Source of the DNA: Candidatus Latescibacterota bacterium
Lineage (GTDB): Bacteria; Latescibacterota; UBA2968; UBA8231
Reading direction: 5' to 3'
Assembly: GCA_965208105.1 (NCBI GenBank)
Contig: OZ242318.1
Span: 1,504,001-1,568,000, forward strand
DNA: 64,000 nt
The notes under the pieces: model-generated
Seen by the model: the letters and a program-made list of their open reading frames with translations, nothing else
The model's database searches: none
Told to the model about the DNA's origin: nothing
Position numbers and translations under genes: made by a program
Shown: in pieces, positions 7,157 through 34,092 of the stretch
How positions within the stretch are numbered: the stretch's first letter is position 1
Layout: each line of letters begins with the position of its first letter

Positions 7157-7687
7157 ATGAAGTTGATTCCGACGATAGTACTTGGGGGTCTCCTGAGCTT
7201 TCAAGCCCAGGTGAGTGGGGATGACTTCGCGCGATCGATTGGAGAGCCGCGAGGACACGCCGAGGATTACACGTTGTTGTTTTTGTTTTCTCCAGATGAC
7301 GCTGTACACCAGCTCCACGCCGAGGAACTGGAGGCCCTGTCCCGTTCCCTCAGGCGGGGCCTGCGGGTCGTTAAACTCAACTGGGCGAAGCAGGCTTCCC
7401 AGGTGAGGGCCAACACCCTGCCGGGTTTTCGGGGGCACGAAAGCATTGGCCACGAACTTTTGAGCGGATCAGGTCTGACCGGGAAAGGGAATCCGCCAGG
7501 CAGCTTGAAGGATCGACTCGGCACAGGAGTGGACCACGCCTTGCTCTTCGACGCCAAAGGCGAGCTGGTCGCCAGCGGATCGGGAGGCGATTTCCGCCGA
7601 ATTGTATCGGCCGTATCCCTGGAGTTGGCCACTCCAACCGAGGTGCAGGTGAGCACCTGGGGCAAGGTAAAGGAATTTTTTCGATAA
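7157..7687 (+). CDS. Secreted hypothetical protein (possibly degenerate thioredoxin-like fold, no CxxC) with C-terminal TWGKVK motif
   Basis: Signal peptide MKLIPTIVLGGLLSFQAQVSG; ends PTEVQVSTWGKVKEFFR. Confidence 0.75.
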   Translation: MKLIPTIVLGGLLSFQAQVSGDDFARSIGEPRGHAEDYTLLFLFSPDDAVHQLHAEELEALSRSLRRGLRVVKLNWAKQASQVRANTLPGFRGHESIGHELLSGSGLTGKGNPPGSLKDRLGTGVDHALLFDAKGELVASGSGGDFRRIVSAVSLELATPTEVQVSTWGKVKEFFR

Positions 7688-7720
7688 AATAATTCTGATG
7701 ATCCCATCTACTGCAAACCG

Positions 7721-7748
7721 GGGGCTTTGGTTCTCAAGCCCCTTTTTT
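7721..7748 (+). terminator. Rho-independent terminator
   Basis: GGGGCTT-N8-AAGCCCC followed by TTTTTT. Confidence 0.8.
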
Positions 7749-7758
7749 ATTTGTTGAC

Positions 7759-8442
7759 ATGTCCATTCCGGAACCTCCTGCTCCAATCCAAATGCGCCGA
7801 AAAGATGGTTTTGCATGTGCCGTGCGCTTGTTGAGCAAGGGGGCTCTACGCTATCATCGGCTGACCGTAGAAGGAGGAGAGCACCTTCCCCGCCGCGGTG
7901 CGGCTCTGGTTTTGCCCAAACACCGGGCTTACCGCGATATCATGGTCGAGGGAGTACTTCTTTACGAACTGACCCGGCGGTATGCCAACTACGTCATGAA
8001 GGTGGGTCTCTACAGGCTTCTGGAACTATCCGGAGGGATCAGGATAGTTCGGCCCAAGGACCTCCGCCGCCTGAAAAACCGGGCAGAAAGAAGAGCGCAG
8101 ATTCTCCGGGCAAGGGAGCACAACCAGGTTGCCCTCGACTACCTGAGTTGGCTTTACAGGGAGGGAGAGATGGTAGTTTCCCACCCGGAGGGCATGCGCT
8201 GCCAGGACTCCCTGGGGCACCTGCAAAAAGAGATCGTCGAGCACATGCTGCAGGTCGAGCAGCACCACGGATTGAGGATTCCCATAATCCCCATCGGGTT
8301 GGAGTACGAAAGCTACAGGAAGCCGCTTTCCCGGATCTATTTCCGGGTTGGTGAACCCTTCTTTTCGGACGAGGTAGGCGATGTGAAGAAGGTAATGGAC
8401 CTGGTGGAAGATCGTCTTCGCGTGTTGAGCCGTTGTGGTTAA
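7759..8442 (+). CDS. Lysophospholipid/glycerolipid acyltransferase (PlsC/GPAT superfamily)
   Basis: HxxxxD block (PKHRAYRD), HPEG.R, IPIIPIGLEY and RVGEP; start uncertain (7759 or 7792). Confidence 0.85.
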   Translation: MSIPEPPAPIQMRRKDGFACAVRLLSKGALRYHRLTVEGGEHLPRRGAALVLPKHRAYRDIMVEGVLLYELTRRYANYVMKVGLYRLLELSGGIRIVRPKDLRRLKNRAERRAQILRAREHNQVALDYLSWLYREGEMVVSHPEGMRCQDSLGHLQKEIVEHMLQVEQHHGLRIPIIPIGLEYESYRKPLSRIYFRVGEPFFSDEVGDVKKVMDLVEDRLRVLSRCG

Positions 8443-9412
8443 GCATCTACCTCATATCCCTTATCCCCCTTCGATACGGCGCAGGCAGGAAGTGCCAAAT
8501 CCCAGTGCAGCCGGCATCATCACCATTGGGATTGCCTTGCTCGTAATCAGCCTGTCGCCTGGTTTCTCAGGCCGGGCACATGCACATCTGCCGCCCGGCG
8601 AATCCTTCAAGGCATTCCATTTTCCGGACCGCCTCGTTCCCGTCATAGACGGTGACTTGAGCGACTGGGACCCCGTGGACGAATCCTATGTGATTACCAC
8701 CGGGGATTTCCACGATCTCGTCCATGACGCGGAGCCCGACCTCGATGATTTCTCCGTGCGATTGATGGTGGGCTGGAACAAAGCGGAGAACAAGCTCTAT
8801 GTTGCGGCCCAGGTGAGGGACGATCTTCATCAGATCGACCGGGCCGATGGAACGGCCTCCCTGCGGATCTGGCAGGACGACAGCATGAACATCTTCGTCG
8901 ATGCCGATCATTCCGGCGGGCAATATGCCAACTTTCGCGATATGAGCGCCGAGGAGAAACTCCGGTTGAACGGGTCGGCAGCCCAGCACTTCGTCATCGC
9001 CGGCCCCCCTCCCGACGAGGACTTTTTCGTCAACTTTTCGGCGGCGGGCTGGTACTCACTTGCGGACGGACCGCATACCGCTGCCGCCTACGCCCTGGAC
9101 GGCATGGTCGGCGGTCCGGCTGTACTCTCCTACGAGTTCATGCTGACGCCCTTCGATCGGGTGGACATAAGGAACGACCTCTTCAGCGAACCGCATTTCA
9201 TGCAGGAAAACGAGACCATGGGCTTCAACGTGGAGTTCAACGATTTCGATACCAGACCTGATCTCTACGACGCCAAGTGGTCTCTCTCCGGAGGACAAAA
9301 CGCACACCTACTGTCGGAGCGATTTGCGGACCTGATTCTCATGCCCCCGGAGCAGTTATCCATGGTGAAGCCTTCCAGTTGGGGATACATCAAGGCCTCC
9401 TTCAAACCCTGA
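8435..9412 (+). CDS. Secreted CBM9/DOMON-like sugar-binding domain protein with C-terminal SWGYIK motif
   Basis: PVIDGDLSDW, MVGWN...LYVAAQVRDD and GFNVEFND are CBM9-like; signal-like hydrophobic stretch ending AHA; true start may be about 20 codons downstream. Confidence 0.75.
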   Translation: MVKHLPHIPYPPSIRRRQEVPNPSAAGIITIGIALLVISLSPGFSGRAHAHLPPGESFKAFHFPDRLVPVIDGDLSDWDPVDESYVITTGDFHDLVHDAEPDLDDFSVRLMVGWNKAENKLYVAAQVRDDLHQIDRADGTASLRIWQDDSMNIFVDADHSGGQYANFRDMSAEEKLRLNGSAAQHFVIAGPPPDEDFFVNFSAAGWYSLADGPHTAAAYALDGMVGGPAVLSYEFMLTPFDRVDIRNDLFSEPHFMQENETMGFNVEFNDFDTRPDLYDAKWSLSGGQNAHLLSERFADLILMPPEQLSMVKPSSWGYIKASFKP

Positions 9413-9571
9413 AATGTTCAGGCGCGGAGCGGCTGGCCAGAACATTCCAGGGATGCTTGCCAGGGTTGATTTCAAGCCCGGCGCCAACCGATTTCAGTCT
9501 CGTTTCCCTTCCATCCAGCCCGGCGCAGGCCGGGCCATTTCGGAAAGACAGGGATAGGGACCTCGACTGGC

Positions 9572-10243
9572 TCATTCCTCTGCAAAGCTGGTCTTGAGCA
9601 CTGCCCAGCTCGCAGTGCGGACATCGGTGGGTGTCTGTTCCCGCGAAGAAGCCATCTGAAGGTATTCCGGTATGGAACCAGGAGTGCCACGCTCCGTAGC
9701 GCCCTCGTCCCATCCGCTCGTTTCCCGAGCCGTACCCCAGCTCGTTCCCAGGGTGCCGCTCTGGTCGAAGGCAAGGCGCACCATGGCCTGCTTGAGCTTG
9801 GTGTCTCCCGCCAGTGGGGCTCCTTTGCCGTCGTCTGCCACGTCCAGAAGATCGGCGCTTTCTTCAGGATTCCCATTGTACAGCCGCAGTTGCAGCTTGG
9901 TATTGGGCAGGGAAACGGCCGGACTCACCTGCTGGGGATTTACGGCCAGCATGGACTGGCTGTTGTCCGGCGGGTAGTTGGCGATGAGGAAGGTCCCCTG
10001 AGGAGAAATGCTGCCTTGTTCTATCAGCACCATGACCACCTCGCCATCATTGGCGAGACGGGTGATGGTCCATCCGGACAAATCGATCTCGGAATCGCTC
10101 CTGTTGTACAGCTCGATCCACTCGTCCGCACTTGAGGCATTGCTGCCCATCCACATCAGTTCGCTGAAGACGACCTGCTTCGGGTCCGAGGCGGCCAGCG
10201 GAGCGGTAAAAATGATTAAGGAGAATAAAATGCGGATTCCCAT
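9572..10243 (-). CDS. Secreted lamin-tail-domain (LTD) protein with C-terminal SWAVLK motif
   Basis: VVFSELMW, EWIELYN....IDLSGWTI and GTPG are LTD motifs; signal peptide. Confidence 0.85.
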   Translation of the reverse strand: MGIRILFSLIIFTAPLAASDPKQVVFSELMWMGSNASSADEWIELYNRSDSEIDLSGWTITRLANDGEVVMVLIEQGSISPQGTFLIANYPPDNSQSMLAVNPQQVSPAVSLPNTKLQLRLYNGNPEESADLLDVADDGKGAPLAGDTKLKQAMVRLAFDQSGTLGTSWGTARETSGWDEGATERGTPGSIPEYLQMASSREQTPTDVRTASWAVLKTSFAEE

Positions 10244-10317
10244 AGGGTCCCTCCTTGATTGGGTGGGGAAAAGAGTATGTTGGGGATCGGTGCCCCAAAG
10301 CCTGGAGGCCTTGTATG

Positions 10318-10367
10318 GGCAAGATCTGTGCCGAAGGCCCTGGATGGGAGCTAACCAGTTGTAAATA
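10318..10367 (-). promoter_or_regulatory. sigma-54 promoter plus upstream IHF-like element for the LTD gene
   Basis: Minus strand CGGCAC-AGATC-TTGCC (10333-10318); TATTTACAACTGGTTAG (10367-10351) lies 18 nt upstream of the GG. Confidence 0.65.
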
Positions 10368-10578
10368 AAGGAGGGATATCCTCCGAAGGATCAGGAGAAT
10401 AAAGGGTGTCCGGGGAAAATATGGATAGGATGGGAAGCGGGTCTGATACCCTCAGGATACACAGGGTAGGCGGACCTCCGGGCGTGGCCGGCCGCGGTGA
10501 TTTACCCCCGCAACCGCTGCCGCAATCGATGATATTCCACTATGGCGCTGTGGGTGCGAACCCCTGCAGGCAGAGATC

Positions 10579-11727
10579 TCAGGAGCGGCTCGAAGCTCGG
10601 ATTTCAGTAGAGCTGATATCGGCGCGGAAGGAGGTTTCAGGGACCATTTCGAACATCTCCTCGTGAGACCCGGGCAACGCGAGGTCTTCCAGGGTCATGA
10701 AGCGTCCCCCATGCGTCCTCCCGGCCACCAGGAAAGCACAGCCATTCGCCCTCATTTCGGCCAGGGCCGCCTCCAGCCCCCGGGCTCCTTCCGCGTAGTA
10801 TTCCGGATCCAACAGGCGCACCGCCGTGTCGTATCCTATCACGAAGCGGCAGTTTCCAAAGAGGCGCGACTTGCGCAGAAAGGTCGGCGCCCGGGTCAGC
10901 ATCACGGAATACCGGCCCTGGAGCTGTTTCAACCGGTTGTCCAGTTCTGTCCTCGTCAGCGCGGGCTTGTCGACGTTTTCCACCGAGATCTCAAGTGATG
11001 GCGGGAGACCAACCAGGCGGTGAACAGCGGCGGACAGCTCTTCATGACCGCGGTGAAACGGATTGAAGGAACCGGGAAACAGCACCCTGTTGAAGCGCTC
11101 GGCCTCGAGCGTCGCCCTCGCGCCAATCCCTACCTCGACCACCTCCACCTCACCCTGCAGCAGCAGGCCTACGGGGTCCCGGGCACAGAGGAACCGCTTT
11201 TCGACGCGGATCCAATCCGGAAGCTCGCCCGGGCCACCGGGCATTCCACAGGCATCTTCCAGGGCGGCGAGGGCAACCCGGCTGAGGATGTCCTCCTGCT
11301 CCGGCCGCTCTGCCGCCCCTTTGGCGAAATGGATTGAATAGAAGCGGAATTCCTCCCTGAGACGCAGGGCCAGAAAGGCCCTCTCCTCTCCCCGTCTTAC
11401 CCGATTTGTCGCCAGGGCGGCCGTGCATCCGAGCCCGAGGGCCATCCTGGAGTCCCCGTCCAGGGTGCGCAGGCGGGCGAATGCCCTGGTGGCCAGATCG
11501 CGGGCGGTGCCCCCTTCGGCCCGGTGCGGACCGGGAGCGCCCAGGTAGTCCTGCACCGCCCGCTCGTGGTAGGGCACCTGAACTTCCACAACCGCGCGCG
11601 AGGCTCCCGGGTGATTGAGCAGCCAGGTCACCAGCTCGGCGCCTCCTCCCGTGGTCGCCAGCGCCAGCCGCACCCCGCTGCACAGGAGAGCCTCGACCCG
11701 ATCCCAGATCCCTGAATCTGCTGCCAT
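10579..11727 (-). CDS. Fusion of CinA/PncC-like N-terminal domain and HxGH nucleotidyltransferase (NMN/NaMN adenylyltransferase-like)
   Basis: PGASRAVVEVQVPY (CinA-like); FPGSFNPFHRGH, NVDKP, FVIGYDT and DISSTEIR (NadD-like). Confidence 0.75.
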   Translation of the reverse strand: MAADSGIWDRVEALLCSGVRLALATTGGGAELVTWLLNHPGASRAVVEVQVPYHERAVQDYLGAPGPHRAEGGTARDLATRAFARLRTLDGDSRMALGLGCTAALATNRVRRGEERAFLALRLREEFRFYSIHFAKGAAERPEQEDILSRVALAALEDACGMPGGPGELPDWIRVEKRFLCARDPVGLLLQGEVEVVEVGIGARATLEAERFNRVLFPGSFNPFHRGHEELSAAVHRLVGLPPSLEISVENVDKPALTRTELDNRLKQLQGRYSVMLTRAPTFLRKSRLFGNCRFVIGYDTAVRLLDPEYYAEGARGLEAALAEMRANGCAFLVAGRTHGGRFMTLEDLALPGSHEEMFEMVPETSFRADISSTEIRASSRS

Positions 11728-11731
11728 TGCC

Positions 11732-13147
11732 TCAGCCTGCCACGAAGTCGTAGACTCCCCTCAATCCCCATCCGGTCAGGAACAAGCCGCTGGCCAGGTT
11801 GAGGACCAGCAGCACCGGACCCATCTGCAGGGGGCGCGGCAGGAAGCGGCGGTCCGTCCAGACCATGAGGAGGCACCACAGGCCGCAGGTCAGCACCCCG
11901 CCGAATATGGCAGCCGGTGTCACGATCTGGACCGGGTTGCCCCCCAGCCACATGATCGCCACCCCGCCGATGCCGCAGTAGGCGACCACCCAGGGGCGCA
12001 GGGACCGCAGCGGCAGGTTCCGCACCCGGGGGACCAGCGGGCGCAGACATTCGTTGGTAGTCCGCACATATAGTTCGTAGGCGCCGAGAATGGTGCCGAA
12101 GAAGGCCGTGAACACTCCGAGCTGGTAGAGGTAAAGAAGGTTGGGATGGAGGAGGGTCAGGAACTCCGCCTGGACCGAAAGCAGTTGCAGCCCCGAGGGT
12201 ACGACCTGCTGCGGATAGAGCACCACCGCCCCCAGCACCATGAATGCCAGGGTGAACAACACGATGCAGCCGAACGAAACCGACATGTCGATCAAGGGAG
12301 CCCGCAGCCAGCTCTTGCCCAGTTTGTAATTGTCTTCGTCAGCGGCGATGGAGACGCCATTTCTGCTGTCCTCCACCTTCCGCCCCATCAGCCCCCATCC
12401 CTTCTCGCGCAGCATCCCGATATAGCCGAAGTAGTCCTGGGTGCCGCCGCCGATGGCCCCCAGGTAGGTCCCCAGCTCGATCCAGGCGGAACGCGCGGCT
12501 ATGTCCGGATATTTGGCAACGACCCACGGAGCGTAGGCCGGCATGGTGGGAATGACCGTTCCGGCGATCACCTTGACCCAATCGGGCTGCAGCACCAGCG
12601 CAGCCACCAGGATACTCAGCAGCAGCAGGCCGACGATCAGGGTCTGGGTGCGCTCGAGGGCCGCGTAACTCTGCACCATGGTCAGGGCGATGGCGGCGGC
12701 CACGAAGGCCGTTCCCCAGACGCGCGGGTCCCCCCAGAAATCCACGCTTCCCAGATCGAAGATCCACACCGTCAACCCGCCCAGCATCTTCGGCAGCCCC
12801 GACAACCACAGGGGGAAGCACAGCAGGGTCGCGATGGACAGGACCCACACCGCCCATCCCGGTGGTCCGGGGAGGTATTTCCAGCGCTCTATGGGATGCT
12901 CTCCCGTAAGGGTGATATAGCGCGCCGCCGTGTAGACCTGGACGTACTTCATCAGGCCTCCCCCCACGAAGCACCACAGCAGCGCATATCCGAAGAGCGC
13001 CCCGCCGCGGGAGGCGAATACGGTCTCTCCACTGCCGATGGTCACCGAGGCGATGATGGCCCCGGGGCCGAAAAACCCCAGCATGGCCGTCAGTTTGCGC
13101 GACTTCAGGGCTTCTGGAAGAGATGGATAACGCAACCCTTCGCTCAT
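11732..13147 (-). CDS. Nramp/APC-family membrane transporter
   Basis: GPGAIIASVTIGSGE N-terminal motif and many TM helices; start moved to ATG 13147 after an AAGGAG RBS. Confidence 0.85.
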   Translation of the reverse strand: MSEGLRYPSLPEALKSRKLTAMLGFFGPGAIIASVTIGSGETVFASRGGALFGYALLWCFVGGGLMKYVQVYTAARYITLTGEHPIERWKYLPGPPGWAVWVLSIATLLCFPLWLSGLPKMLGGLTVWIFDLGSVDFWGDPRVWGTAFVAAAIALTMVQSYAALERTQTLIVGLLLLSILVAALVLQPDWVKVIAGTVIPTMPAYAPWVVAKYPDIAARSAWIELGTYLGAIGGGTQDYFGYIGMLREKGWGLMGRKVEDSRNGVSIAADEDNYKLGKSWLRAPLIDMSVSFGCIVLFTLAFMVLGAVVLYPQQVVPSGLQLLSVQAEFLTLLHPNLLYLYQLGVFTAFFGTILGAYELYVRTTNECLRPLVPRVRNLPLRSLRPWVVAYCGIGGVAIMWLGGNPVQIVTPAAIFGGVLTCGLWCLLMVWTDRRFLPRPLQMGPVLLVLNLASGLFLTGWGLRGVYDFVAG

Positions 13148-13180
13148 GATATCGGACTCCTTTGATTCAATGCCGGAGCA

Positions 13181-13209
13181 ATGATAGTCCGCCCCGGACC
13201 CTTTGTCAA
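13181..13209 (-). promoter_or_regulatory. sigma70-type promoter for the transporter and CinA/NTase genes
   Basis: Minus strand TTGACA-N17-TATCAT. Confidence 0.7.
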
Positions 13210-13527
13210 TCAGCTCCGGACCCCCTTGCACCACCAGGTTTTCATGCAATCATCGAGGGGCTTCGAGGCCGTTTTTTTCAGTAGGTGCTCAAGCCTGAAT
13301 TGCGGCCTCCGTCCGGTTGCGAGACCCATCTCACGCGCCCCCTCTCCCGACCCGACACGGCGCGGCAGTGCGATGGCATGGAGAATTTACCCGCACCGGA
13401 ATTTCCCGCAGCGAATGGAACACCGTCCCTTTCCGGCAGGCCCATCTTGACATCGGGGCCGCAGGATATATCTTAAACTTTTTCAACCATTTTCATGACC
13501 GGATTCCAATCACCCAGGTAGCAAATC

Positions 13528-15786
13528 ATGAGCACATCAGCGAATTGGAAGGAACACCTGGCCGGCCGCATCCCCGAGGCATGGGGTGAGGAGATCGACC
13601 ACTTCGAGACCCAGATCGAGCTGAGAAGGCAGAACAAGCTGGACGAGATCATATTCATGGAGACCCGACTGCGGCGCGGGGTCTACGGCCAGCGCTACGA
13701 CAATGGTGAGCGCCGGGACGGAGCTCACGTCCAAAAGCTGAAGTTCCCCAGCGGAGAGCTTACCAAGGGCACCAACGCCCTGTGGGACGCCCCCGGGATG
13801 CAGCGCATCAAGATCCCCTTCGGCGGTCTCAACACCGAGCAGATGGATGTTCTGGCAGACCTCAGCGAGGAATACTCCGACGCCATCTGCCACGTCACCA
13901 CGCGCCAGGACATCCAGCTCCACTTCGTCCACATCGACGACACCCCGGACCTCATGCGCCGCCTCGCAGCCGTCGGGATCACCACCCGCGAAGCCTGCGG
14001 GAACTCGGTCCGCAACGTCACCGCCTGTCCCCTCTCCGGCGTCTGCCGCACCGAGGCCTTCGACGTGACGCCCTATGCCCGCGCCTGTGCATTTTTCCTC
14101 CTCGGACATCCCGACGTCCAGGACTTCGGCCGCAAGTTCAAACCCGCCTTCTCCGGCTGCAAGCACGAAGCCTGCGGCCTCACTACGATGCACGACCTGG
14201 GGGCGATCGCCGCGACCCGCACGGTCGACGGCAAGGTGGAGCGCGGCTTCGAACTCTACGTGGGAGGCGGCCTGGGGGCCGTCCCACACCAGGCCAAGCT
14301 CTTCGACCCCTTCGTCGACGAGAAGGATCTTCTTCCGACCATTCAAGCTATCTCGCGGGTCTTCGCGCGCCTGGGGGAAAAGGCCAACCGCGCCCGGGCC
14401 CGCATCAAGTTTCTGGTGGCCAAGCTCGGAATCGAGGAGTTCCGCCGCCTCGTCGTGGAAGAACGGGAAGCCATTCCCCCGGACCAGCGCTGGACCGCTT
14501 ACCTCGACGACCTGGATATCTGCGACGAGGAGGGCCTCAAACCCGGGCTTGCCCTGGACCGCGACGTGGGGGATGAAGGCTTCGGCGAATGGTACAAAAC
14601 CAATGTCTACCGCCAGCGACAGGAAGGATACGTGGTCGCCACCGTCGCCTTGCCGCTCGGCGACATCACCGCCGACCAGCTGCGCGCCCTGGCGGCCATC
14701 TCCCGGCGCTTCGTCAAGGACACGGTAAGGACTACGGTGGAGCAGAACATCGTGCTGCGCTGGGTCAGGGAAGCGGATCTGCCGGAACTCTACGGGGAAC
14801 TGCGGAAAATCGGCCTCCACCAGTCGGGGGCGGGCACAATCGTCGACGTGACCGCCTGCCCCGGGACCGATACCTGCAGGCTGGGCATCGCCTCCTCCCG
14901 CGGCCTGGCCGCCGAGCTGCGCAAGCGCCTGGCCGCGCAGAACCTGCAATTCGACCAGGCCGTCAAGGACCTGCGCATCAAGCTCAGCGGATGCTTCAAT
15001 TCATGCGGCCAGCACCATATCGCCGACCTGGGATTCTACGGAATCAGCCGCAAGGTCGGAGGCTACACGGTTCCTCACTTCCAGGTCGTCCTGGGCGGGC
15101 AGTGGTCCGAGAACGCCGCTTCCTTCGGGTTGCCCATCGGGGCGGTTCCGTCCAGGAGGATCCCCGACGTGGTTGCCCGCATGACGGAGAGCTACATACA
15201 TGGCCGCGGCAAGGGGGAGAGCTTCCAGGACTACATCCGGCGCATCGGAAAGAGGGAAGCCAAAGCCATGCTCGAGGACCTGACTCCCGTGCCCCCGCAC
15301 GATGAGGACGCCTCGTACTACAGCGACTGGGGCGACCCCCGCGAGTTCACTCTCGGAGACATGGGCAAAGGCGAATGCGCCGGCGAGGTTGTTCCCCTGA
15401 TCCACTTCGAGCTGTCCGACTGCGAAAGGGAGGCCTTCGAGGCCCAGGTCCTGCTCGAGGAGGGCGACTTCGAAAAATCCTACCATACCGCCTGTAGCGC
15501 CATGCTGCACGCCGCCAAGGCCCTGGTGAAGACCCAGTTCCTCGACATCCCGGAAGACCCGGACGCCATCGTGGCAGAGTTTCGCGAGCGCTTCTGCGAT
15601 ACGAAGCTGTTCTGGGACACCTATGCGCAGGACAAGTTCGCCCGCTACCTCCTTCGCGTCCACGAGACCGAGGTGGCCGAGTACACCCAGGACCTCGCCC
15701 GCAAGACCAGCGAGGAAGCGGGACTTTTCATCGAGGCCACCTACCGCTGCTTCGACGCCATGTCCACAACCAGCACGGCTCCCTGA
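13528..15786 (+). CDS. Siroheme/4Fe-4S ferredoxin-dependent sulfite/nitrite reductase with C-terminal HEPN-like extension
   Basis: TTRQDIQLH, EACGNSVRN, RKFK, ACPGTDTCRLG and SGCFNSCGQH (cluster cysteines). Confidence 0.92.
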   Translation: MSTSANWKEHLAGRIPEAWGEEIDHFETQIELRRQNKLDEIIFMETRLRRGVYGQRYDNGERRDGAHVQKLKFPSGELTKGTNALWDAPGMQRIKIPFGGLNTEQMDVLADLSEEYSDAICHVTTRQDIQLHFVHIDDTPDLMRRLAAVGITTREACGNSVRNVTACPLSGVCRTEAFDVTPYARACAFFLLGHPDVQDFGRKFKPAFSGCKHEACGLTTMHDLGAIAATRTVDGKVERGFELYVGGGLGAVPHQAKLFDPFVDEKDLLPTIQAISRVFARLGEKANRARARIKFLVAKLGIEEFRRLVVEEREAIPPDQRWTAYLDDLDICDEEGLKPGLALDRDVGDEGFGEWYKTNVYRQRQEGYVVATVALPLGDITADQLRALAAISRRFVKDTVRTTVEQNIVLRWVREADLPELYGELRKIGLHQSGAGTIVDVTACPGTDTCRLGIASSRGLAAELRKRLAAQNLQFDQAVKDLRIKLSGCFNSCGQHHIADLGFYGISRKVGGYTVPHFQVVLGGQWSENAASFGLPIGAVPSRRIPDVVARMTESYIHGRGKGESFQDYIRRIGKREAKAMLEDLTPVPPHDEDASYYSDWGDPREFTLGDMGKGECAGEVVPLIHFELSDCEREAFEAQVLLEEGDFEKSYHTACSAMLHAAKALVKTQFLDIPEDPDAIVAEFRERFCDTKLFWDTYAQDKFARYLLRVHETEVAEYTQDLARKTSEEAGLFIEATYRCFDAMSTTSTAP

Positions 15787-15818
15787 ACCCGGTCAGCGAG
15801 CAGATAGAATCCGAAGCG

Positions 15819-16379: not shown

Positions 16380-16472
16380 CACCGTCAGCCGCTTGGGCTT
16401 TTTTTTATCTTTTCAGTAGTTTTTCAGTTCTTCGGACTCAGAGCGCGATCAAGCCACATCCAGGAGGAAATC

Positions 16473-16787: not shown

Positions 16788-16816
16788 TCGCCCTGTGATT
16801 TTCGGGAGCAGGTCAT

Positions 16817-16850
16817 AGCCGGAATGTCCGCGCGACATTCCGGCTTTTTG
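16817..16850 (+). terminator. Rho-independent terminator after the ferredoxin gene
   Basis: AGCCGGAATGTC-CGCGC-GACATTCCGGCT followed by TTTT. Confidence 0.85.
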
Positions 16851-16939
16851 CGCCCTTGACTACCCGGGCCGGGAATCACTAATTTTCCTGGCTGAAATCA
16901 TCGGTCCCCATCACCCCAATCGAGAAGTGCTCAAGGAAA

Positions 16940-24124: not shown

Positions 24125-26053
<1,929 letters not shown>

Positions 26054-26158
26054 TCTCGGAGAAATCTCCCCCTGCTAGCGGCGGGGGTGTTCACGAACAG
26101 GTTCGGGCGGAAAGTGTCCGCGGCGCCGGGGCAGTGGGTCCCGCTCCGGCGCCGCCAT

Positions 26159-27193
26159 TCAGCTCTGGGGCATGAACATCAGCTTCATCCCCTCGCGCCT
26201 CTCGGCAAGCTCGAACGCCCGCTGCCATTCGCCCAGGTCGAACTGGTGGGAAATCAGCTTCTCGCTGGGAACCAGTCCCTGCTCCATCAGCTTCAACGCC
26301 CGCTGCCAGACCGGCCTGCGCTGGGCAAGGGCGCCTTTCACCTCTATTTCCTTGTAGGCGATGAGCTCGAAGTCGATCTCCACCGGCCTCCCCGGCAGTC
26401 CCATCTGGGCGTATCTGCCGCGCTTGCGCACCAGGTTCAATCCCAGCTCCATGGCGGCGGGCGCACCGGAACACTCCACCACCGCATCTGCTCCGTATCC
26501 CCCGGTCAGCTCCCCCACCCTCTCAACCGCATCCCCTGACTCGACCTCCACGGTGTAGTGCACGCCCAACTCCTCGGCCAGGCGCAGGCGCTTCCCGTCT
26601 TCCGCGGTGCCGCAGACCAGTACCGTCGCTCCCTCGGCCAGGGCGACCAGGGCCGCGAACAGTCCCACCGGCCCCGGACCGGTAACCACCACGAAATCTC
26701 CCGCTGAGACGCCGACCTGCTCCGAAACGGCATGGACGCAGCAGGCCAGCAACTCGGTGGTCGCCCCCGCCTCGAAACTCACACCTTCCGGCAATTTGTG
26801 GGCGCTGACCACGTTGCAGTAGGGGGCGAAGCATCCATCGTACCAATAGCCCAGTACCCTGCGCTCGGGACAGAGATTGTAGTGTTCGCTGCGGCAGTAG
26901 ATGCACCTGCCGCAGAGGTGGATACTGGGCTCGGCCGTCACCCGGTCGCCCACCTCGACCTCGGCGCCTGCCCGGGCTCCCTTCTCCACCACCACCCCGC
27001 TGAACTCGTGCCCCATGACCACCGGGGTGCGGATGGGATAGTTGATGGAATCGTGATAGATATGCAGATCAGACCCGCATACCCCGCTCGCCCGGACCTC
27101 TATCTTCACCTGGTCCGGAGCGGGAGGCCGGTTCTCCACCTCCCGAAGCTCCACAAACCCATGCCCCCTGGCATATTTTACCACGCCCTTCAC
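26159..27193 (-). CDS. Zinc-dependent alcohol/polyol dehydrogenase (sorbitol DH-like)
   Basis: GVCGSDLH, GHEFSG, CGRC.YC.....NLC and GPGPVG. Confidence 0.92.
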   Translation of the reverse strand: MKGVVKYARGHGFVELREVENRPPAPDQVKIEVRASGVCGSDLHIYHDSINYPIRTPVVMGHEFSGVVVEKGARAGAEVEVGDRVTAEPSIHLCGRCIYCRSEHYNLCPERRVLGYWYDGCFAPYCNVVSAHKLPEGVSFEAGATTELLACCVHAVSEQVGVSAGDFVVVTGPGPVGLFAALVALAEGATVLVCGTAEDGKRLRLAEELGVHYTVEVESGDAVERVGELTGGYGADAVVECSGAPAAMELGLNLVRKRGRYAQMGLPGRPVEIDFELIAYKEIEVKGALAQRRPVWQRALKLMEQGLVPSEKLISHQFDLGEWQRAFELAERREGMKLMFMPQS

Positions 27194-28233
27194 GGCTCTT
27201 CCCCGGCCGATTCCTTGAGCCTGAGCCGGTCGCCCGCCATGATCCTTCCCTCTCCTTCCACGACGCGCACGCTGGAAAGCCGGGCGCCGATGATCTCCCG
27301 CACCTCTACAACTCCGATGCGCCGCCCCGCATCCAGACCCTCCTTCTCGATGCGGTCAGGGCCCGGGTAGACCTCGAACCGGTAGGCCGGCCGCAGTTTG
27401 TTCTCACTGCCGATATTGATGTAGACCTCCTCGCCGAACACGGAGAGGACCTCAGGCGCCTCCCCGCCCAGGTCGAGCTCGCTGGGCTTGATGAGCTGCT
27501 CCAGCTTCAGCACCAGGTCCTGCATGGCGCTGAGAGTGACCTGGCCGATGGCGGTTGCCTGGAATTCCTCGGACCCGAACTCCAGCTGGTGCAGCTTCAT
27601 GAACTGGAGGTCCTGATCGCGCGGCCGGCCCAGGAGATCGAGGCCCAGTCCCCGGTCAACGCTCTCCTGCCTGGTGTGTATGGTGCCCAACTCGCTCCCG
27701 TTCTTCACGTCCAGGGCCTGCAGGTCCAGCTCCGCAGTCCCCGAGTAGGACTTATACCCACCCAGCATGGGATCTCCCACCGTAACCCGGCTCAGGTCGT
27801 AGTCCTTGATCGCACCCAGCAGGACTATGTCCGCCTCGACCAGCCGGGCTACTTCCAACGCCCTTTCGGTCTTCACCTTCTTCTGTTCGCCCACCAGCGC
27901 GGCGACGACCTCGAAGGGAACCACGCGCCAGTCCGGGGAATCGGCCATCCTTTCACTCAGCAGTGCGCCCATCTCCTTCCCCAACTCCCAGATCCCCTTG
28001 CGGAAGCCGGACTGGTTCTCGAGGGGCATGACGGCGATATACTGCACGGGCACCGCGGTGGTGTCCGCAGTGAGCTCCCTGCGATGCAGGTACTGGTCGA
28101 GCACTTCGCGCTGTTCCTCCAGCACTACTGCGCCTTCCTCCCCGGTGGGAGGAGCTTCGGCCTTGCCCAGCAGGTTCAACGCAGAACAACCGGAGATGAG
28201 GATGATCGACAGACTGAGGATGTGGAATTTCAT
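27190..28233 (-). CDS. Lipoprotein with CsgG/TolB-N-like and FlgT-C-like domains
   Basis: Lipobox ISG-C after hydrophobic stretch (start ATG 28233); IAVMPLEN; C-terminal VYINIG..N.L..../IG.VEV.E/GDR pattern. Confidence 0.65.
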   Translation of the reverse strand: MKFHILSLSIILISGCSALNLLGKAEAPPTGEEGAVVLEEQREVLDQYLHRRELTADTTAVPVQYIAVMPLENQSGFRKGIWELGKEMGALLSERMADSPDWRVVPFEVVAALVGEQKKVKTERALEVARLVEADIVLLGAIKDYDLSRVTVGDPMLGGYKSYSGTAELDLQALDVKNGSELGTIHTRQESVDRGLGLDLLGRPRDQDLQFMKLHQLEFGSEEFQATAIGQVTLSAMQDLVLKLEQLIKPSELDLGGEAPEVLSVFGEEVYINIGSENKLRPAYRFEVYPGPDRIEKEGLDAGRRIGVVEVREIIGARLSSVRVVEGEGRIMAGDRLRLKESAGEEP

Positions 28234-28452
28234 TTCAGGTCCACCCCGCAAAGGCAGGAGGTTCCAGGGGAAAGGATTCGATGCGCGGATATTTTCCCGG
28301 GCATTCAGAGGGACGGGGGTTCAGGTTCCGGACAAGTTAAGTAGTGGATGGATCTACCCGGTGTCAAGGTGACCCATTCAACCCTTGCCAAGCCCCGCCC
28401 CCGATCTTGCCCGGCACTTGCCTTTGGCATATTTTATGGTTTCCGGACCTCG

Positions 28453-28528
28453 GCCGCTTTAGCTCAACTGGTAGAGCACCTGATTTGTAATCAGGAGGTT
28501 ATGGGTTCGATTCCCATAGGCGGCTCCA
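28453..28528 (+). tRNA. tRNA-Thr(TGT)
   Basis: Acceptor GCCGCTT/AGGCGGC, D-arm AGCTCAACTGGTAGAGC, anticodon arm CCTGA-TTTGTAA-TCAGG, T-loop GGTTCGATT and encoded CCA. Confidence 0.97.
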
Positions 28529-28645
28529 GAAATTCTGCGATCGAAGACGTTCCCCCCGGAGCGCGGCAACTCTCCGGAGCGCAAACTGCGGAGCGTTTTC
28601 TTTTTGCCGATCCCGCACCCCCCGAATCCCCAAAGACATGCGGAC

Positions 28646-30487
28646 ATGATCGAGACCATTCTCGCCCTCGCCCTGATCCTGATCGCCCTCCTCGTCTTCC
28701 TGTGGAAACGGTCCGGTCCGGACCCGGGCCTGGACCTTTCCTACGACCCTTCCGAGGGTGAGAGATCTCCTCATCGCTGGGGCTACGGCGATACGAAATT
28801 CGAGTTCGACGGTCCCCGCAGCGTAAGGATGAGAGGCAGCCGCTACCCGCTCGCCGGCTACAACATGCCCTATTTCATCCCCTTTGCCGAGGAAGTCCTG
28901 GGAGTGGAGATCCGCCCCCAGGGCATCAGTGCGGAAAACGACGAAAAGCCCGTGGCCGAGCCGAGGGTGAACGAGGAGTTTTTCGCCGCCGTGCAGGCCA
29001 GCTTCGGCGTCGACCAGGTCTCCCTCGATCCCGGGGAAAGACTGGTCCACAGCCACGGCCAGGTCAGCGTTGACGAGGTCTACCGGGTCCTCTACGGCGA
29101 GCCGTTGCAGCGCACCGTCGATCTGGTGCTCTACCCACAGGGGGAAGAGGAGGTGCGCACCATCGTCCGGCTGGCCAACCGGCACGATGTCTGCCTGGTG
29201 CCATACGGCGGCGGCACCAATGTGAGCGGCGCCCTTTCCTGCCCGCCAGGAGAGCAGCGAACCATCGTCTCGGTGGACATGCGCAGGATGGGCCGCGTTC
29301 TCTGGATGGACGAGGCCAACCTGCAGGCCTGCATAGAAGCCGGCATCTCCGGCAAGCAGATGGAGCTGGAGCTCAATGCCAGGGGATACACCTCGGGCCA
29401 CGACCCCGACAGCATCGAGTTTTCGACCCTGGGAGGCTGGATCTCGACCAACGCCAGCGGAATGAAGAAGAACAAGTACGGCAACATCGAAGACATCGTC
29501 CTCGAGGCCACCCTGGTCACTCCCACCGGAGACATCGAGGCAAGGAAGGCGACGCCGAGAAACTCCACCGGGGTGCAGCCCCGGGTCTTCCTCTTCGGCA
29601 GCGAGGGCAATTTCGGCATCATCACCAAGGCCATCGTCAAGATCCATCCGCTCCCGCAGGTGCGCCGCTACGGCCTTCTCATCTTCCCCTCCCTCGAGAG
29701 GGGCGTCAGCTTCCTGAAGGAGCTGCGCCGCGAGGAAGTCCTGCCGGCCAGCATCCGCCTGTTGGACAACGCCCAGTTCAGGTTCGGGCAGGCGCTCAAA
29801 CCTGCGCCGGGGTTCTTCAAGGGCATGGTGCAGGGAGGGCAGAAATTCCTGCTGCTGAAGATCCTCGGCTTCAAGCCCCTGGAAATGGCGGCCTGCACCT
29901 TGGTCATGGAAGGCTCCACAAGGGAGGTCCGCCATCAGAAGAAAGCCATCTTCAAGACCGCCAGGAAGCACGGCGGGGTCAGCGGGGGCGCCGCCAACGG
30001 CCGGCGGGGCTATATGCTCACCTTCGGCATCGCCTACATCAGGGACTTCTTCAACCAGTTTCACATCCTCGGCGAATCTTTCGAGACCTCGGTCCCCTGG
30101 GACCGCATCCTACCCGTTTGCAATGCGGTCGAGAAGAAGCTGGGGGAGCAGTGCCGCGCCTATCAGGTGCCGGGGAAACCGTTTCTTTGCTACAGGGTAA
30201 CCCAGACCTATCACACCGGGGTCTGCATCTACTTCACCCTGGCCATTTGCGGCGAGGGCCTGGAGAAACCCGACGCAGTATTTCACCATATCGAGCACAG
30301 TCTCAGGCAAACCATCCTCGACCACGGCGGCTCCCTTTCCCATCATCACGGGGTCGGCAAGATCCGCCGCGATTTCCTGCCCCAGGTACAGACCGACAAC
30401 AGCCTCCAGGTTATGCGCCAGGCCAAGAAAGCCATGGACCCCAACAACGTCTTCGCCATCGGCAACGGCCCCTTCGGCGATTCCTGA
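28646..30487 (+). CDS. Alkyl-dihydroxyacetonephosphate synthase (AGPS)-like FAD oxidoreductase with N-terminal TM anchor
   Basis: WGYGDTKF, RYPLAG, PYGGGTNVS, GHDPDSIEFSTLGGWISTNASGMKKNKYGNIED, RVTQTY.TG.CIYF and SLSHHHGVGK. Confidence 0.85.
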   Translation: MIETILALALILIALLVFLWKRSGPDPGLDLSYDPSEGERSPHRWGYGDTKFEFDGPRSVRMRGSRYPLAGYNMPYFIPFAEEVLGVEIRPQGISAENDEKPVAEPRVNEEFFAAVQASFGVDQVSLDPGERLVHSHGQVSVDEVYRVLYGEPLQRTVDLVLYPQGEEEVRTIVRLANRHDVCLVPYGGGTNVSGALSCPPGEQRTIVSVDMRRMGRVLWMDEANLQACIEAGISGKQMELELNARGYTSGHDPDSIEFSTLGGWISTNASGMKKNKYGNIEDIVLEATLVTPTGDIEARKATPRNSTGVQPRVFLFGSEGNFGIITKAIVKIHPLPQVRRYGLLIFPSLERGVSFLKELRREEVLPASIRLLDNAQFRFGQALKPAPGFFKGMVQGGQKFLLLKILGFKPLEMAACTLVMEGSTREVRHQKKAIFKTARKHGGVSGGAANGRRGYMLTFGIAYIRDFFNQFHILGESFETSVPWDRILPVCNAVEKKLGEQCRAYQVPGKPFLCYRVTQTYHTGVCIYFTLAICGEGLEKPDAVFHHIEHSLRQTILDHGGSLSHHHGVGKIRRDFLPQVQTDNSLQVMRQAKKAMDPNNVFAIGNGPFGDS

Positions 30488-30516
30488 ATATTCCTCATTC
30501 GATCACCTTGCTGCCC

Positions 30517-31329
30517 ATGAGCGCGTTTCGCGATAAATCGGTCATCATCACAGGAGCTTCGTCGGGGCTCGGAGCGGCCCTGGCCCTGCAACTCGCGCGC
30601 GGCGGTGCCCGCCTGACGCTCTTCTCTCCCGAAAGAGACCGGCAGCGGGAGGTCGCAGATCTGTGCGAAGAGGCCGGCGGCCGCGCCTTGGCGGTGATCG
30701 GCGACGTCACAAGTCCCGCGGACTGCGAGAGTATGACCGAGCAGGCCGTCTCCCACTTCGGGTCGGTGGATTTCCTGGTTGCCAACGCCGGCATCAGCAT
30801 GTGGGCCAGCTTCCCGGAAATAAAGGACCTGGACATCATTCGCCGGCTGATCGAGGTGAACTATCTCGGCGCCGTGAACTGCGTCCATCACGCCCTTCCA
30901 CATCTGCGGCGAAGCCGGGGAATGATCGTCGCCATCACCTCGATCCAGGGCAAGATCGGCGTGCCCATGCACACCGGCTACGTCGCCTCCAAGCATGCCC
31001 TGCAAGGTTTTTGCGAAGCTCTCAGGATGGAGCTCGAGGACAGCGGCGTCGACGTACTCACCGTGCTGCCCCACTGGCTGCGGGGCACCGAGCTCAGAAA
31101 GCACGCGCTGGGGAAGGACGGCAGGGAGCTGGGGACCTCCTCCCGGAAGCACAGCCGGGAATCGGTCTCCATCGAGGCCGCCTGCGAAGCCATCCTCGTG
31201 GCGATGCGCAAGCGCCGCCGCGAGCTGGTCATTCCCTGGAAGCTCAAGCTCCTCCTGGGGCTCAACCTGTTCTGTCCCGGGATGGCCGAAAGCATCATCA
31301 CCTCGGCCATGAAGAAGCAGGACAGGTAG
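30517..31329 (+). CDS. SDR oxidoreductase, DHRS7B/11beta-HSD-like subfamily
   Basis: ITGASSGLG, NAGISM, EVNYLG and SIQGK...TGYVASKHALQGF.EALRMEL; start ATG 30517. Confidence 0.88.
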   Translation: MSAFRDKSVIITGASSGLGAALALQLARGGARLTLFSPERDRQREVADLCEEAGGRALAVIGDVTSPADCESMTEQAVSHFGSVDFLVANAGISMWASFPEIKDLDIIRRLIEVNYLGAVNCVHHALPHLRRSRGMIVAITSIQGKIGVPMHTGYVASKHALQGFCEALRMELEDSGVDVLTVLPHWLRGTELRKHALGKDGRELGTSSRKHSRESVSIEAACEAILVAMRKRRRELVIPWKLKLLLGLNLFCPGMAESIITSAMKKQDR

Positions 31330-31516
31330 GGCGATGCAACCGCCCTTCCAGACCTCCGGCCCCGCCTCCACCCGCAGTTCCCCCGCTCATTTCTTGACAC
31401 CAGCAACCGCCTGGTATTAAGTACTAAAGAGTTGCAGAATCCTGGTTGCGGAGCCGCCAAATGCCCGTGGACCGGGGTAAATCCGGAAAACCTCAATCTC
31501 GCGGGAGACCTGAACC

Positions 31517-32305
31517 ATGACCCCAGAACAACGCTACATGTTCGATTTGACCGGCTACCTCCACCTCGAGAACGTGCTCAGCGAGGAAGAGCTGAAAAAC
31601 GCCCAGGAGGCCACCGAGCGCCACCTCAATACTCCGGAGGAAGAGCTGCCCCCGGGATTCGGCATCGATGGCAGGCGCTACCTGCACGGATTCGCCTTCG
31701 ACAAATGCCTGGAAGCCCTGACCATGCATCCGGCCACCTGGCCCATCATCAAGGAACTGACCAACGACAAGCCGCGTTTCGGCAGCGGTACTCTCACCGC
31801 CGACCTTCCCGGAGAGGTCACGGGGGGCGGGCTGCACTGCGCCCGCGAGGACTACGGCTGGGAAAGCACGCGCTACGAGTGCCGCGACGGCCGCATCTAC
31901 TGCGACGACTTCGTCGTGTTCCCCTATTTGGACGACGTCAATCCGGGCGACGGGGGCCTGGTGGTGGTCCCGGGCTCTCACAAGGCCAATTTCCACCGCC
32001 CCCGCGAGCTCTTCAATCTTGACGACTTCGGCAACGGAACCCAGCCGGCCATCGTCAACGTCACCCCGAAGGCCGGCGACGTGGTCATCATGCCCGAACT
32101 GCTCACCCACGGCATCCTGCCCTGGACTCCCGGGGACAGGATGCGCCGCATCCTTATTCTGCGCTACGTGCCCCAGCACAAGGGAAGCGAGAATTTTTCC
32201 GCCGAAATCAAGGCGCGCCTGTCGCCGGAGACCCTGGAACTGATCGAGACCGCACACTTCACCCACGTCAAGGAAATCGTCGGGAAGGGCCGGGCGGCTG
32301 CCTGA
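31517..32305 (+). CDS. PhyH-family Fe(II)/2-oxoglutarate oxygenase (HxA variant)
   Basis: FDLTGYL, LHCARE, GGLVVVPGSHK, AGDVVI...LTHG and RR. Confidence 0.88.
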   Translation: MTPEQRYMFDLTGYLHLENVLSEEELKNAQEATERHLNTPEEELPPGFGIDGRRYLHGFAFDKCLEALTMHPATWPIIKELTNDKPRFGSGTLTADLPGEVTGGGLHCAREDYGWESTRYECRDGRIYCDDFVVFPYLDDVNPGDGGLVVVPGSHKANFHRPRELFNLDDFGNGTQPAIVNVTPKAGDVVIMPELLTHGILPWTPGDRMRRILILRYVPQHKGSENFSAEIKARLSPETLELIETAHFTHVKEIVGKGRAAA

Positions 32306-32321
32306 AGGAGGAAATGGCTTC

Positions 32322-33158
32322 ATGAACGAATCGAAAAGCGATGCGAGATACACCATGGGACGCACCCGGGGCGAGGAAGAGCGCCTGATTCAGCAGTCGC
32401 AGCTCTACGACGCGGTGACCCGGCGTTTCCTCACCGAGGCGGGCCTCGGCAGCGGAATGAAGGTTGTGGATATCGGCTGCGGACCCGGGGATGTCTCCCT
32501 GACGGCCGCCGAGCTGGTCGGCGAGGAAGGATCGGTAGTGGGGGTAGACGTCAACCCGGCGATTCTCGAGACGGCGCGGGCGCGGGCGCGGGAAGCCGGG
32601 TTCGCCAACGTCGAATTCATCGCGGGGGACGCGCGCACCCTGGACCTCGGCGGCGACTTCGACGCCCTGGTCGGCCGCCTGGTCCTGATGTACATGGCCG
32701 ATCCGGCCGCCGCCGTGAAGCAGCTTGCCACCCTCCTGCGCCCGGGAGGAATCGTAGCCTTCCAGGAGGCAGACTTCACCCCCTACCGGCAGATGCACCG
32801 TCCGGATACGCCGGTGGCAAACAAGCTGATCGATTGGGCGCTCGGAGTGTTCGAGCGTTCCGGAGTACACATCGGTATGGGCTTCGACCTCTACCGCACC
32901 TTCGTCGACGCCGGTCTGCCCGAGCCCAGCATGAATTTCGAGTCTCCGGTCGGCGGCCCGCAGTCGTGGGCCGGGTACCCATTCGTCGCCAACAGCTTTC
33001 GCAGCATGCTCCCGCTCATAGTCGAGTACGGGATCGCCACGGAGGAGGAGGTCGGGTTGGAGACCCTGGCCGAGCGCGTGCGGCAGGAGGTGGTGACGGC
33101 GAAACGCCCGTTCGCCCTGCCCCCACACGTGACCGCCTGGGCCCAAATACCCGCCTGA
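32322..33158 (+). CDS. Class I SAM-dependent methyltransferase
   Basis: VVDIGCGPG, VVGVD and LRPGG. Confidence 0.9.
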   Translation: MNESKSDARYTMGRTRGEEERLIQQSQLYDAVTRRFLTEAGLGSGMKVVDIGCGPGDVSLTAAELVGEEGSVVGVDVNPAILETARARAREAGFANVEFIAGDARTLDLGGDFDALVGRLVLMYMADPAAAVKQLATLLRPGGIVAFQEADFTPYRQMHRPDTPVANKLIDWALGVFERSGVHIGMGFDLYRTFVDAGLPEPSMNFESPVGGPQSWAGYPFVANSFRSMLPLIVEYGIATEEEVGLETLAERVRQEVVTAKRPFALPPHVTAWAQIPA

Positions 33159-33198
33159 TCCCCGGCATGTCATATTCCCGGAGGCGATACTACCCGCA

Positions 33199-34092
33199 AT
33201 GCCCAGGACCTTGCTGACAGCCGCCATCCTGCTGATGGCCCTGGCGGCGGCGCGCGCCGAGGAATCCCTGCTGGACGAGGAGGGCGAGCTCAGCGTCCAG
33301 CTCCCCAAGGGCGAGACCATGAAGTTCGTGTGGATCGAGCCTGGGACCTTCCTGATGGGGGCGACGAAGGACGAGGTGAGTCCGACCTCGGACGAGCTGC
33401 CGCAGCACGAGGTGACCATCTCCAGCGGGTTCTTTCTGGCAAAACACGAGCTGACCCAGGAACAGTGGGCGAGCCTGATGGATACCAGGCCCTGGAGAGA
33501 CCAACGCTTCGCCCGGGACTGGCGCTCCTATCCCGCGGTCTACATCTCCTGGGAGGATGTGATGGAGTTCATCGACCAGATGAACGAGTGGGCGGGTGCG
33601 GATATCTACCGGCTTCCCACCGAGGCCGAGTGGGAATACGCCGCCCGCGCCGGTTCGACGGACCCCTGGTCGTTCGGAGACCGCCTGAGAGACCTGATCA
33701 GATACGCCTGGTTCGACAGCAACGCATGGCGGGCGGGCAACCAGTTCGGCCATCCGGTCGGCCTTCTGATGCCCAATTCCTGGGGACTGTACGACATGCA
33801 CGGAAATGTGTGGGAGTGGGTGCAGGACTGGTACGGGGACTATGGCGAGGCCCCGCAGGTGGATCCACCGGGACCCGCGGCGGGAACTCTCCGCGTCACC
33901 CGCGGGGGCGGCTTCACCGACGGCTACGAGGACCAGCGCTCGGCCTCCCGCAGTGCGAACCTGCCGGTGGATCGCTTCAGCAACGTGGGCGCCCGGATCC
34001 TGATGGTGGATGCGCCCACGGCGGTGAAGCTCGACAGCTGGGGGCGGATCAAGTCCAGGGCGAAGGGATCCGACTCTCCTGCCCGAGATTGA
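33199..34092 (+). CDS. Secreted FGE-sulfatase (SUMF1)-domain protein with C-terminal SWGRIK motif
   Basis: Signal peptide; RLPTEAEWEYAARAG, PNSWGLYDMHGNVWEW and RVTRGG. Confidence 0.9.
   Translation: MPRTLLTAAILLMALAAARAEESLLDEEGELSVQLPKGETMKFVWIEPGTFLMGATKDEVSPTSDELPQHEVTISSGFFLAKHELTQEQWASLMDTRPWRDQRFARDWRSYPAVYISWEDVMEFIDQMNEWAGADIYRLPTEAEWEYAARAGSTDPWSFGDRLRDLIRYAWFDSNAWRAGNQFGHPVGLLMPNSWGLYDMHGNVWEWVQDWYGDYGEAPQVDPPGPAAGTLRVTRGGGFTDGYEDQRSASRSANLPVDRFSNVGARILMVDAPTAVKLDSWGRIKSRAKGSDSPARD

Follow-up and report, generated by a model that had tools for sequence, protein, structure and literature searches.

A short C-terminal [ST]WGxxK tag on unrelated exported-type proteins of Latescibacterota: a putative envelope sorting or anchoring label

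The window considered here is a 64-kb stretch of DNA (G000:C1:1504001-1568000) from the genome of a Candidatus Latescibacterota bacterium, which consists of one 4.85-Mb contig with a guanine plus cytosine content of 61.6%; within it, four genes encode exported-type proteins with unrelated cores that end in the same peptide of about 17 residues, hereafter the tag. These genes and their open reading frames (ORFs) are as follows.

7157..7687, + strand: tagSmall, an exported-type protein of 176 aa with no Pfam family; tag at 7634-7684, TEVQVSTWGKVKEFFR; ORF ends ...PTEVQVSTWGKVKEFFR
8492..9412, + strand: CBM9-like exported-type protein (Pfam CBM9_1), start uncertain (GTG at 8435 or GTG at 8492); tag SSWGYIKASFKP; ORF ends ...SMVKPSSWGYIKASFKP
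9572..10243, - strand: lamin-tail-domain (LTD) exported-type protein (Pfam LTD); tag TDVRTASWAVLKTSFAEE; ORF ends ...PTDVRTASWAVLKTSFAEE
33199..34092, + strand: FGE-sulfatase-domain exported-type protein (Pfam FGE-sulfatase), one of seven tagged FGE paralogues in the genome; tag TAVKLDSWGRIKSRA followed by 10 aa; ORF ends ...PTAVKLDSWGRIKSRAKGSDSPARD

All four ORFs and their shared tails lie exactly where a preliminary description of the window had placed them, and their common ending is [PA]-T-x-V-x3-[ST]-W-G-x-[IVL]-K-x-x-F-[RK]. Pfam supports the CBM9_1, LTD and FGE-sulfatase cores named in that description; the thioredoxin-like core that it assigned to the 176-aa protein found no such backing. 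The pattern [ST]W[GA].[IVLM]K has one further match within the window, internal to a 279-aa ORF (genome positions 1563661-1564500, - strand) that is suspected to be spurious.

The tag extends well beyond these four proteins. A census of the whole genome, covering 41,671 six-frame stop-to-stop ORFs with a minimum length of 60 aa, returned 42 matches to the pattern above, 32 of which begin no more than 24 residues from the stop; the density elsewhere in ORFs predicts 1.46 such terminal matches, which amounts to a 22-fold enrichment (binomial p 9e-21). A hidden Markov model (HMM) of the tail scores 32 tails at 17.1-29.2 bits, and the next-best matches reach 13.5 bits at most. The set of 34 candidates used below (L001-L034) consists of the 32 clear tails together with GWGAVK (13.5 bits) and NWARVK (11.2 bits), both of which were included because they are C-terminal on exported-looking proteins; matches of 11.4-12.0 bits, lying 28-57 residues before the stop in short ORFs, were excluded. 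The motif is thus carried by 32-34 proteins genome-wide, with the consensus [PA]-T-[A]-V-x3-S-W-G-x-[IVL]-K-x-x-[FR]-[RK] over all 34, in which the W and the K are invariant. Most tails in the genome continue for up to about 10 residues past the consensus, with a maximum of 25 (L031); the residues after the conserved Lys are charged and number about 3-29 in this genome, and up to 18 in the 32 clear tails.

The tagged cores belong to at least nine Pfam families, namely FGE-sulfatase (seven proteins), PD40 propeller (four), Cache (three) and Lipocalin_4 (two), with HmuY, LTD, CBM9, CBM96 and GmrSD_C found once each; 12 of the 34 have no Pfam family at E<=0.01 and one more has a sub-threshold match only. 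Tagged cores in genomes of other families include Kelch, SnoaL, LVIVD, BNR, DUF5818 and beta-helix. The census thereby bears out the earlier proposal that the tail is portable and strictly C-terminal on unrelated proteins with signal-like N-termini. The tag is also linked to export: by a crude hydrophobicity rule a signal-like N-terminus is present in 30 of the 34 tagged proteins and in 19.4% of 3,499 other ORFs (Fisher p 1e-17), an enrichment on signal-bearing proteins of the kind that the preliminary description had set as a check; a stricter rule gives 21 of 34 and 14.1%, respectively. Read by eye, 31 of the 34 have a classical cleavable signal peptide, the exceptions being fragments of 83, 111 and 58 aa.

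No lipobox was found in any of the 34 tagged proteins, which leaves them without an N-terminal lipid anchor by this measure, and no transmembrane (TM) anchor is apparent, because no hydrophobic run past the conserved Lys exceeds 4 residues. The tail is also too short for the folded C-terminal domain (CTD) of the type IX secretion system (T9SS) and matches no model of it, in agreement with what had been noted from the four tails. Pfam and NCBIfam hold no model that matches any tail (window proteins at E<=0.1, canonical tails at E<=0.01 in NCBIfam), so a match to an already described domain was not obtained from either database, and a literature search by motif string and by topic found no description; the tag is apparently undescribed.

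It can be asked whether such a tail would need a protein partner at all, as it may act as a self-sufficient, in-plane amphipathic membrane anchor in which W, [IVL], [LM] and F form one face and K/R snorkel to lipid head groups or lipopolysaccharide; some penicillin-binding proteins are held on the membrane by C-terminal helices. With W at position 1, I at 4, L at 7 and F at 8, and with K and R at 5 and 9, respectively, the spacing suits a single helix face, the AlphaFold2 (AF2) model of tagSmall draws the tail as a helix at low confidence, and no protein reader was found. In addition, domains of the HmuY, lipocalin and GldK-like kinds are elsewhere often found as lipoproteins, and none of the 34 tagged proteins is one, those domains included. 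A generic anchor, however, would not be expected to hold T, V, W, G and K unchanged from phylum to phylum; the T-x-V-E half of the motif lies outside the putative helix, and the all-or-none pattern within the phylum, given below, suggests dependence on something that can be lost. We consider a reader-independent anchor to be unlikely.

The peptide itself is under selection. Codon use within the tag is mixed, with both Ser codon families represented (AGY 21, TCN 9), Gly encoded by GGA, GGC, GGG and GGT (11, 8, 8 and 4, respectively) and all Thr and Val codons used; the third-position identity at shared four-fold codons is 0.31, where 0.29 is expected. Since synonymous codons vary freely, selection acts on the peptide and not on the DNA. 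The idea that the shared ending is a chance resemblance, or a DNA repeat translated at the 3' ends of genes, is refuted by this codon variation along with the terminal enrichment, and it is hardly conceivable that it should hold.

Among the genomes of the phylum, 168 in number and grouped in 14 families (f1-f14), the tail HMM finds the tag in 94. It is present in f1, the family of this genome (75/75), in f5 (3/3), f6 (3/3), f7 (1/1), f8 (1/1), f9 (2/2), f11 (1/1), f12 (5/6) and f10 (2/13), and was not found by this model in f2 (0/31), f3 (0/3), f4 (0/22), f13 (0/1) or f14 (0/5); f2, f3 and f4 belong to one class with f1. In f13 and f10 there is a variant ending, ...TWGx[IV]KxLY[RQ], which the HMM under-scores, and the negative results in other families are therefore to be read with care; the tag is found in 10 of the 14 families, two of them holding it as the variant or rarely only. 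A strict terminal DNA pattern gave no sites in four tag-less genomes and three in G000, a weak test that detects only 3 of the 34 tags. Tag-less families are also without tagSmall (3/3 genomes tested) and, at strong scores, without the lipoprotein X462 described below; the tag is gained or lost as a unit.

In distant families the tag takes the canonical form PTAVEpsSWGqIKaLF[KR]-stop, in which the Ser precedes the stop by exactly 10 codons; CBM9 proteins with this form occur in f12 as well (L048, L058). A degenerate DNA pattern for the canonical form was run against 185,579 species genomes and matched at least 119 loci, with about 2 expected by chance by our own estimate. Among the 119 matches listed, 116 are intact tags at ORF ends that are also conserved at positions left free by the pattern, for example E at -3 and L/M at +7, which again argues against chance or a translated repeat. 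The record titles among the listed matches name Latescibacterota, Eisenbacteria/Eiseniibacteriota, Gemmatimonadota, Ignavibacteria/Melioribacteraceae/Chlorobiota/Bacteroidota and others. Metagenome-assembled genomes (MAGs) titled Gemmatimonas phototrophica (L121/G156), Handelsmanbacteria (L061/G012) and Gemmatimonadota (L063/G119) have coordinates identical to those of f1 genomes; the titles are therefore unreliable to phylum, and no claim is made on true Gemmatimonadota or cultured Gemmatimonas. An Eisenbacteria-titled genome (G170) has 22 tag matches, and one Ignavibacteria-titled genome has one, a 133-aa protein. At protein level, a search of 1.84 billion cluster representatives gave 431 proteins at E<=1e-3; in 149 of the best 150 of these the W lies 9-21 residues from the end, at exactly 9 in 108 of them, and the lone exception is an unrelated Cys-rich repeat protein. 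The preliminary description had proposed a recognition peptide for a lineage-specific outer-membrane export, cleavage/attachment or surface-scaffold system, of which the C-terminal placement on exported-type proteins stands; the restriction to one lineage is too narrow in view of the 10 families and of the MAGs titled Eisenbacteria and Ignavibacteria.

In the Ignavibacteria-type-titled MAGs (L067, L085, L102, L109, L126) the 133-aa protein is the sole tagged protein; in it the tag is preceded by a body that bears a likeness to a T9SS-CTD-like Ig domain (...GVYIYRLKF...), and its gene always lies upstream of Maf, an LPG-synthase-TM protein and YtxH.

The genome that contains the window also has a T9SS with classical cargo, as there are 45 TIGR04183 matches over the cut-off, classical type-A CTDs, and a PorU scored at 632 bits. 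None of the 34 tagged proteins matched the T9SS CTD models TIGR04183, PF18962, PF13860 or PF13585 in Pfam and NCBIfam, and an HMM built from the genome's own CTDs matched 48 ORFs, none of which is tagged. CTD proteins are found in 168 of 168 genomes of the phylum, tag-less families included, and T9SS presence is thus ruled out as a predictor of the tag. With regard to gene order, 6 of the 14 loci taken from distant families show a tagged gene beside CTD genes; across 80 loci of the collection scan a CTD gene is the immediate neighbour of 12 of 60 tagged ORFs, several of these loci being orthologous and not independent, and none of the 60 carries both signals on one protein. For 4 of the 34 tagged proteins the closest untagged paralogous domain lies inside a CTD protein: the three Cache proteins have theirs in one 906-aa protein, and L032 has its own in a protein of 2,840 aa. 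Canonical PorU (NF033707, E<=1e-100) occurs in every tag-bearing family, including 12 of 13 genomes of f10, and in none of the 56 genomes of f2, f3 and f4.

On these grounds the tag may instead be a T9SS-linked handle, whereby small proteins without a CTD would ride with neighbouring cargo, or a PorU-type sortase complex would process or attach them. The frequent adjacency of tagged and CTD genes, the alternation of tag and CTD on homologous domains, the joint absence of tag and canonical PorU from f2, f3 and f4, and the presence of CTD proteins throughout the phylum are all consistent with such a handle; yet no tag-less family is without CTDs, PorU is accompanied by no or few tags in f14 and most of f10, and only 2 of the 34 tagged genes of this genome lie directly beside a CTD gene by coordinate comparison. 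Furthermore, known T9SS signals are described in PMC11285876 as folded beta-sandwiches of about 70-100 residues. A T9SS-linked handle is accordingly judged improbable.

Side observations on PorU concern longer ORFs of a related kind: in G019 (f2) and G079 (f4) the only PorU-like ORF is about 1,900-2,000 aa long (G019:C1:64216-69150, G079:C1:803529-807761), and a second PorU-like copy in G000 (G000:C1:3099186-3103979) is of the same type.

Several known systems invite comparison with the tag. The T9SS type-A CTD (TIGR04183 / PF18962, FlgD_ig-like) is likewise a C-terminal signal of Sec-exported proteins in FCB-type bacteria, and here it shares genomes, homologous cargo domains and gene neighbourhoods with the tag; it differs in being a folded domain, about 70-80 residues long and with the ending ...GVYFYRL...K.LLLK, whereas the tag is only about 17 residues long and does not resemble it in sequence. 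LPXTG/sortase, PEP-CTERM/exosortase, GlyGly-CTERM/rhombosortase and MYXO-CTERM/myxosortase resemble the tag in that a short motif near the C-terminus marks many unrelated exported proteins per genome, with an all-or-none distribution between lineages; however, these signals are tripartite, with a TM helix and then a basic cluster after the motif, an architecture that defines CTERM signals according to bioRxiv 10.1101/2023.06.07.544157, and the tag has neither a TM segment nor an Arg cluster. The WGxxGxxG-CTERM model (NF038039) matched none of the tails. The dockerin (PF00404), which through cohesin tethers unrelated enzymes to a partner, is also a small portable module; it is a Ca-binding domain of about 60 residues, unlike the tag. 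Finally, the beta-signal of outer-membrane beta-barrel proteins is extreme C-terminal and aromatic, and shares with the tag the position and an aromatic residue near the end; the beta-signal sits on barrels, whereas tagged proteins have soluble-type domains (propellers, Cache, FGE) and the last residue of the canonical tag is basic, not aromatic.

Dockerins deserve further mention, since the closest homologues of the window's FGE-sulfatase protein in tag-less genomes have other termini: those of f3 end right after the domain, and those of f4 form a tandem array without the tag and have an N-terminal dockerin-like segment, as read by eye. None of the 34 tagged proteins matched PF00404. Dockerin matches number 4 in G000, 29 in G079, 31 in G019, 7 in G024 and 17 in G040, of which G079 and G019 are tag-less; G040 has its 17 dockerin matches along with 12 tags, and the two modules are therefore not strictly alternative, which rules out strict dockerin/tag complementarity. 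The f4 array (L183, L187, L191, L193; G079:C1:2034974-2055292) holds at least five FGE-sulfatase paralogues, and the dockerin-like N-termini were read by eye in L183 and L191.

Among the tagged proteins of the window, tagSmall allows the tail to be compared with its own core. In an alignment of 16 sequences (A2; 22-94% identical to the first) nearly all invariant columns fall in the tail, and TEVDESTWGKVKDLF[KR] is the best-conserved part of the protein; a homologue search returned seven close relatives, all of them unnamed proteins. AF2 gives a poor model for tagSmall, with a predicted local distance difference test (pLDDT) score of 48.6, and the low-confidence helix of the tail spans residues 162-174. 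A tail so conserved bears on one further explanation, that a periplasmic protease or chaperone, for instance a PDZ-type tail binder, recognises it, and that it would mark proteins for turnover or quality control instead of giving an address. A short, C-terminal peptide with a hydrophobic-basic end would suit this role, but the motif lies 4-18 residues from the actual end in this genome, unlike PDZ ligands, and a degron is hard to square with some 34 stable-looking enzymes and binding proteins or with a tagSmall whose tail is its best-kept part; a turnover tag is very unlikely.

Two other genes of the window relate to tagSmall.

7759..8442, + strand: PlsC-type acyltransferase (Pfam PF01553), downstream of tagSmall
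27190..28251, - strand: X462, a 353-aa lipoprotein with the lipobox LISGC and a FlgT/CsgG/PelC/TolB-N-like fold; candidate partner of tagSmall or of the tag

The acyltransferase follows tagSmall in seven loci examined, and in relatives the genes form the block LarA-X462-tagSmall-acyltransferase-PD40-PMT2, of which only tagSmall and the acyltransferase are still together in the window. X462 has no Pfam or NCBIfam family and is conserved in the majority of the phylum's families; f1 genomes hold 1-5 paralogues each. Its AF2 model (pLDDT 74.6) is matched best by FlgT in Foldseek (3w1e/8z5n, E 1e-14), with further matches to CT253, GNA1162, CsgG, HpaA, PelC, LpoB and the TolB N-domain; CsgG, PelC and FlgT form rings at the outer membrane. 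The gene adjoins tagSmall in eight f1 loci, also in f8 and f9, as well as in two MAGs with a Gemmatimonadaceae title. Strong matches to X462 occur in f1 (72/75), f5-f9, f10 (10/13), f11, f12 and f13, and f2, f3, f4 and f14 have none or only marginal ones (E about 1e-9); with variant tags counted, its presence matches that of the tag at family level in 14 of 14 families.

The explanation that we favour, with modest confidence, is that the tag is an envelope sorting or anchoring label with a dedicated partner, the partner protein not being found here. Tagged proteins would be exported via an ordinary cleavable signal peptide, and T-[APE]-V-[EQ]-x-x-[ST]-W-G-x-[IVL]-K-x-[LM]-[FY]-[RK], at the C-terminus or within about 10 residues of it, would serve as a portable post-Sec address or anchoring label. 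The tail would then be read in the cell envelope by the partner, and this step would keep the protein at, or bring it to, the outer membrane or cell surface; the label would work alongside the T9SS CTD and stand in for a lipid anchor or dockerin, and cleavage, or attachment via the invariant Lys, may follow. What speaks for this reading is the terminal position, the link to export, the portability and the protein-level selection of the tag, its meeting with T9SS cargo and with dockerin-like termini on related domains, and its joint gain or loss with tagSmall and X462 at family level. A more specific proposal is an undescribed envelope sorting or attachment pathway beside T9SS with X462 as its reader in this phylum and the invariant Lys possibly used for covalent attachment. 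X462 is put forward because its gene adjoins the most conserved tagged gene and its presence tracks the tag in all 14 families; the proposal as a whole is distinctly unlikely to be correct. X462 was not found in Ignavibacteria or Bacteroidetes MAGs either, and as it was also not found in tag-carrying Eisenbacteria-titled genomes it cannot be the universal reader, a role for which it is ruled out.

Several points weigh against the tag being such a label. No reader was found in this analysis, and the relaxed tail in this genome, with up to 18 residues after the Lys, fits poorly with a reader of a free, fixed C-terminus. X462 was not found in any of the four Eisenbacteria-titled genomes chosen as tag carriers, tags having been counted in G170 only (22). 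Signal peptides were scored by the crude hydrophobicity rule instead of SignalP. Canonical PorU is also present in tag-less f14 (4/5), and the family-level pattern perhaps rests on two independent losses, a profile that many other genes therefore share.

The study of C-terminal sorting signals has time and again uncovered envelope machinery that was new, such as sortases, exosortases, rhombosortase and T9SS, and the tag, with neither a TM helix nor a folded domain, fits no known architecture. Large uncultured lineages, sponge symbionts included, carry it on dozens of enzymes and binding proteins per genome; the identity of its reader would explain how proteins are placed in these envelopes and would yield a compact, 17-residue display tag. 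The clean presence or absence between sister families, along with the tagSmall-X462 pair, makes the question open to comparative genomics now.

Two minor observations concern the arrangement of tagged genes in G000. Three clusters are present, at 2198110-2214583 (seven genes), 2112712-2122873 (four) and 3141591-3155497 (four); they comprise FGE-sulfatase, PD40 and lipocalin-like paralogues, and the second lies directly after the gene of a 1,038-aa T9SS-CTD protein. Short ORFs of 58-111 aa in which nothing but a tagged C-terminal end is preserved occur at G000:C1:2397901-2398095, 2088594-2088860 and 2202566-2202925; one of them copies the tail of gene 3141591-3142346 (L028), and all are probably gene remnants.

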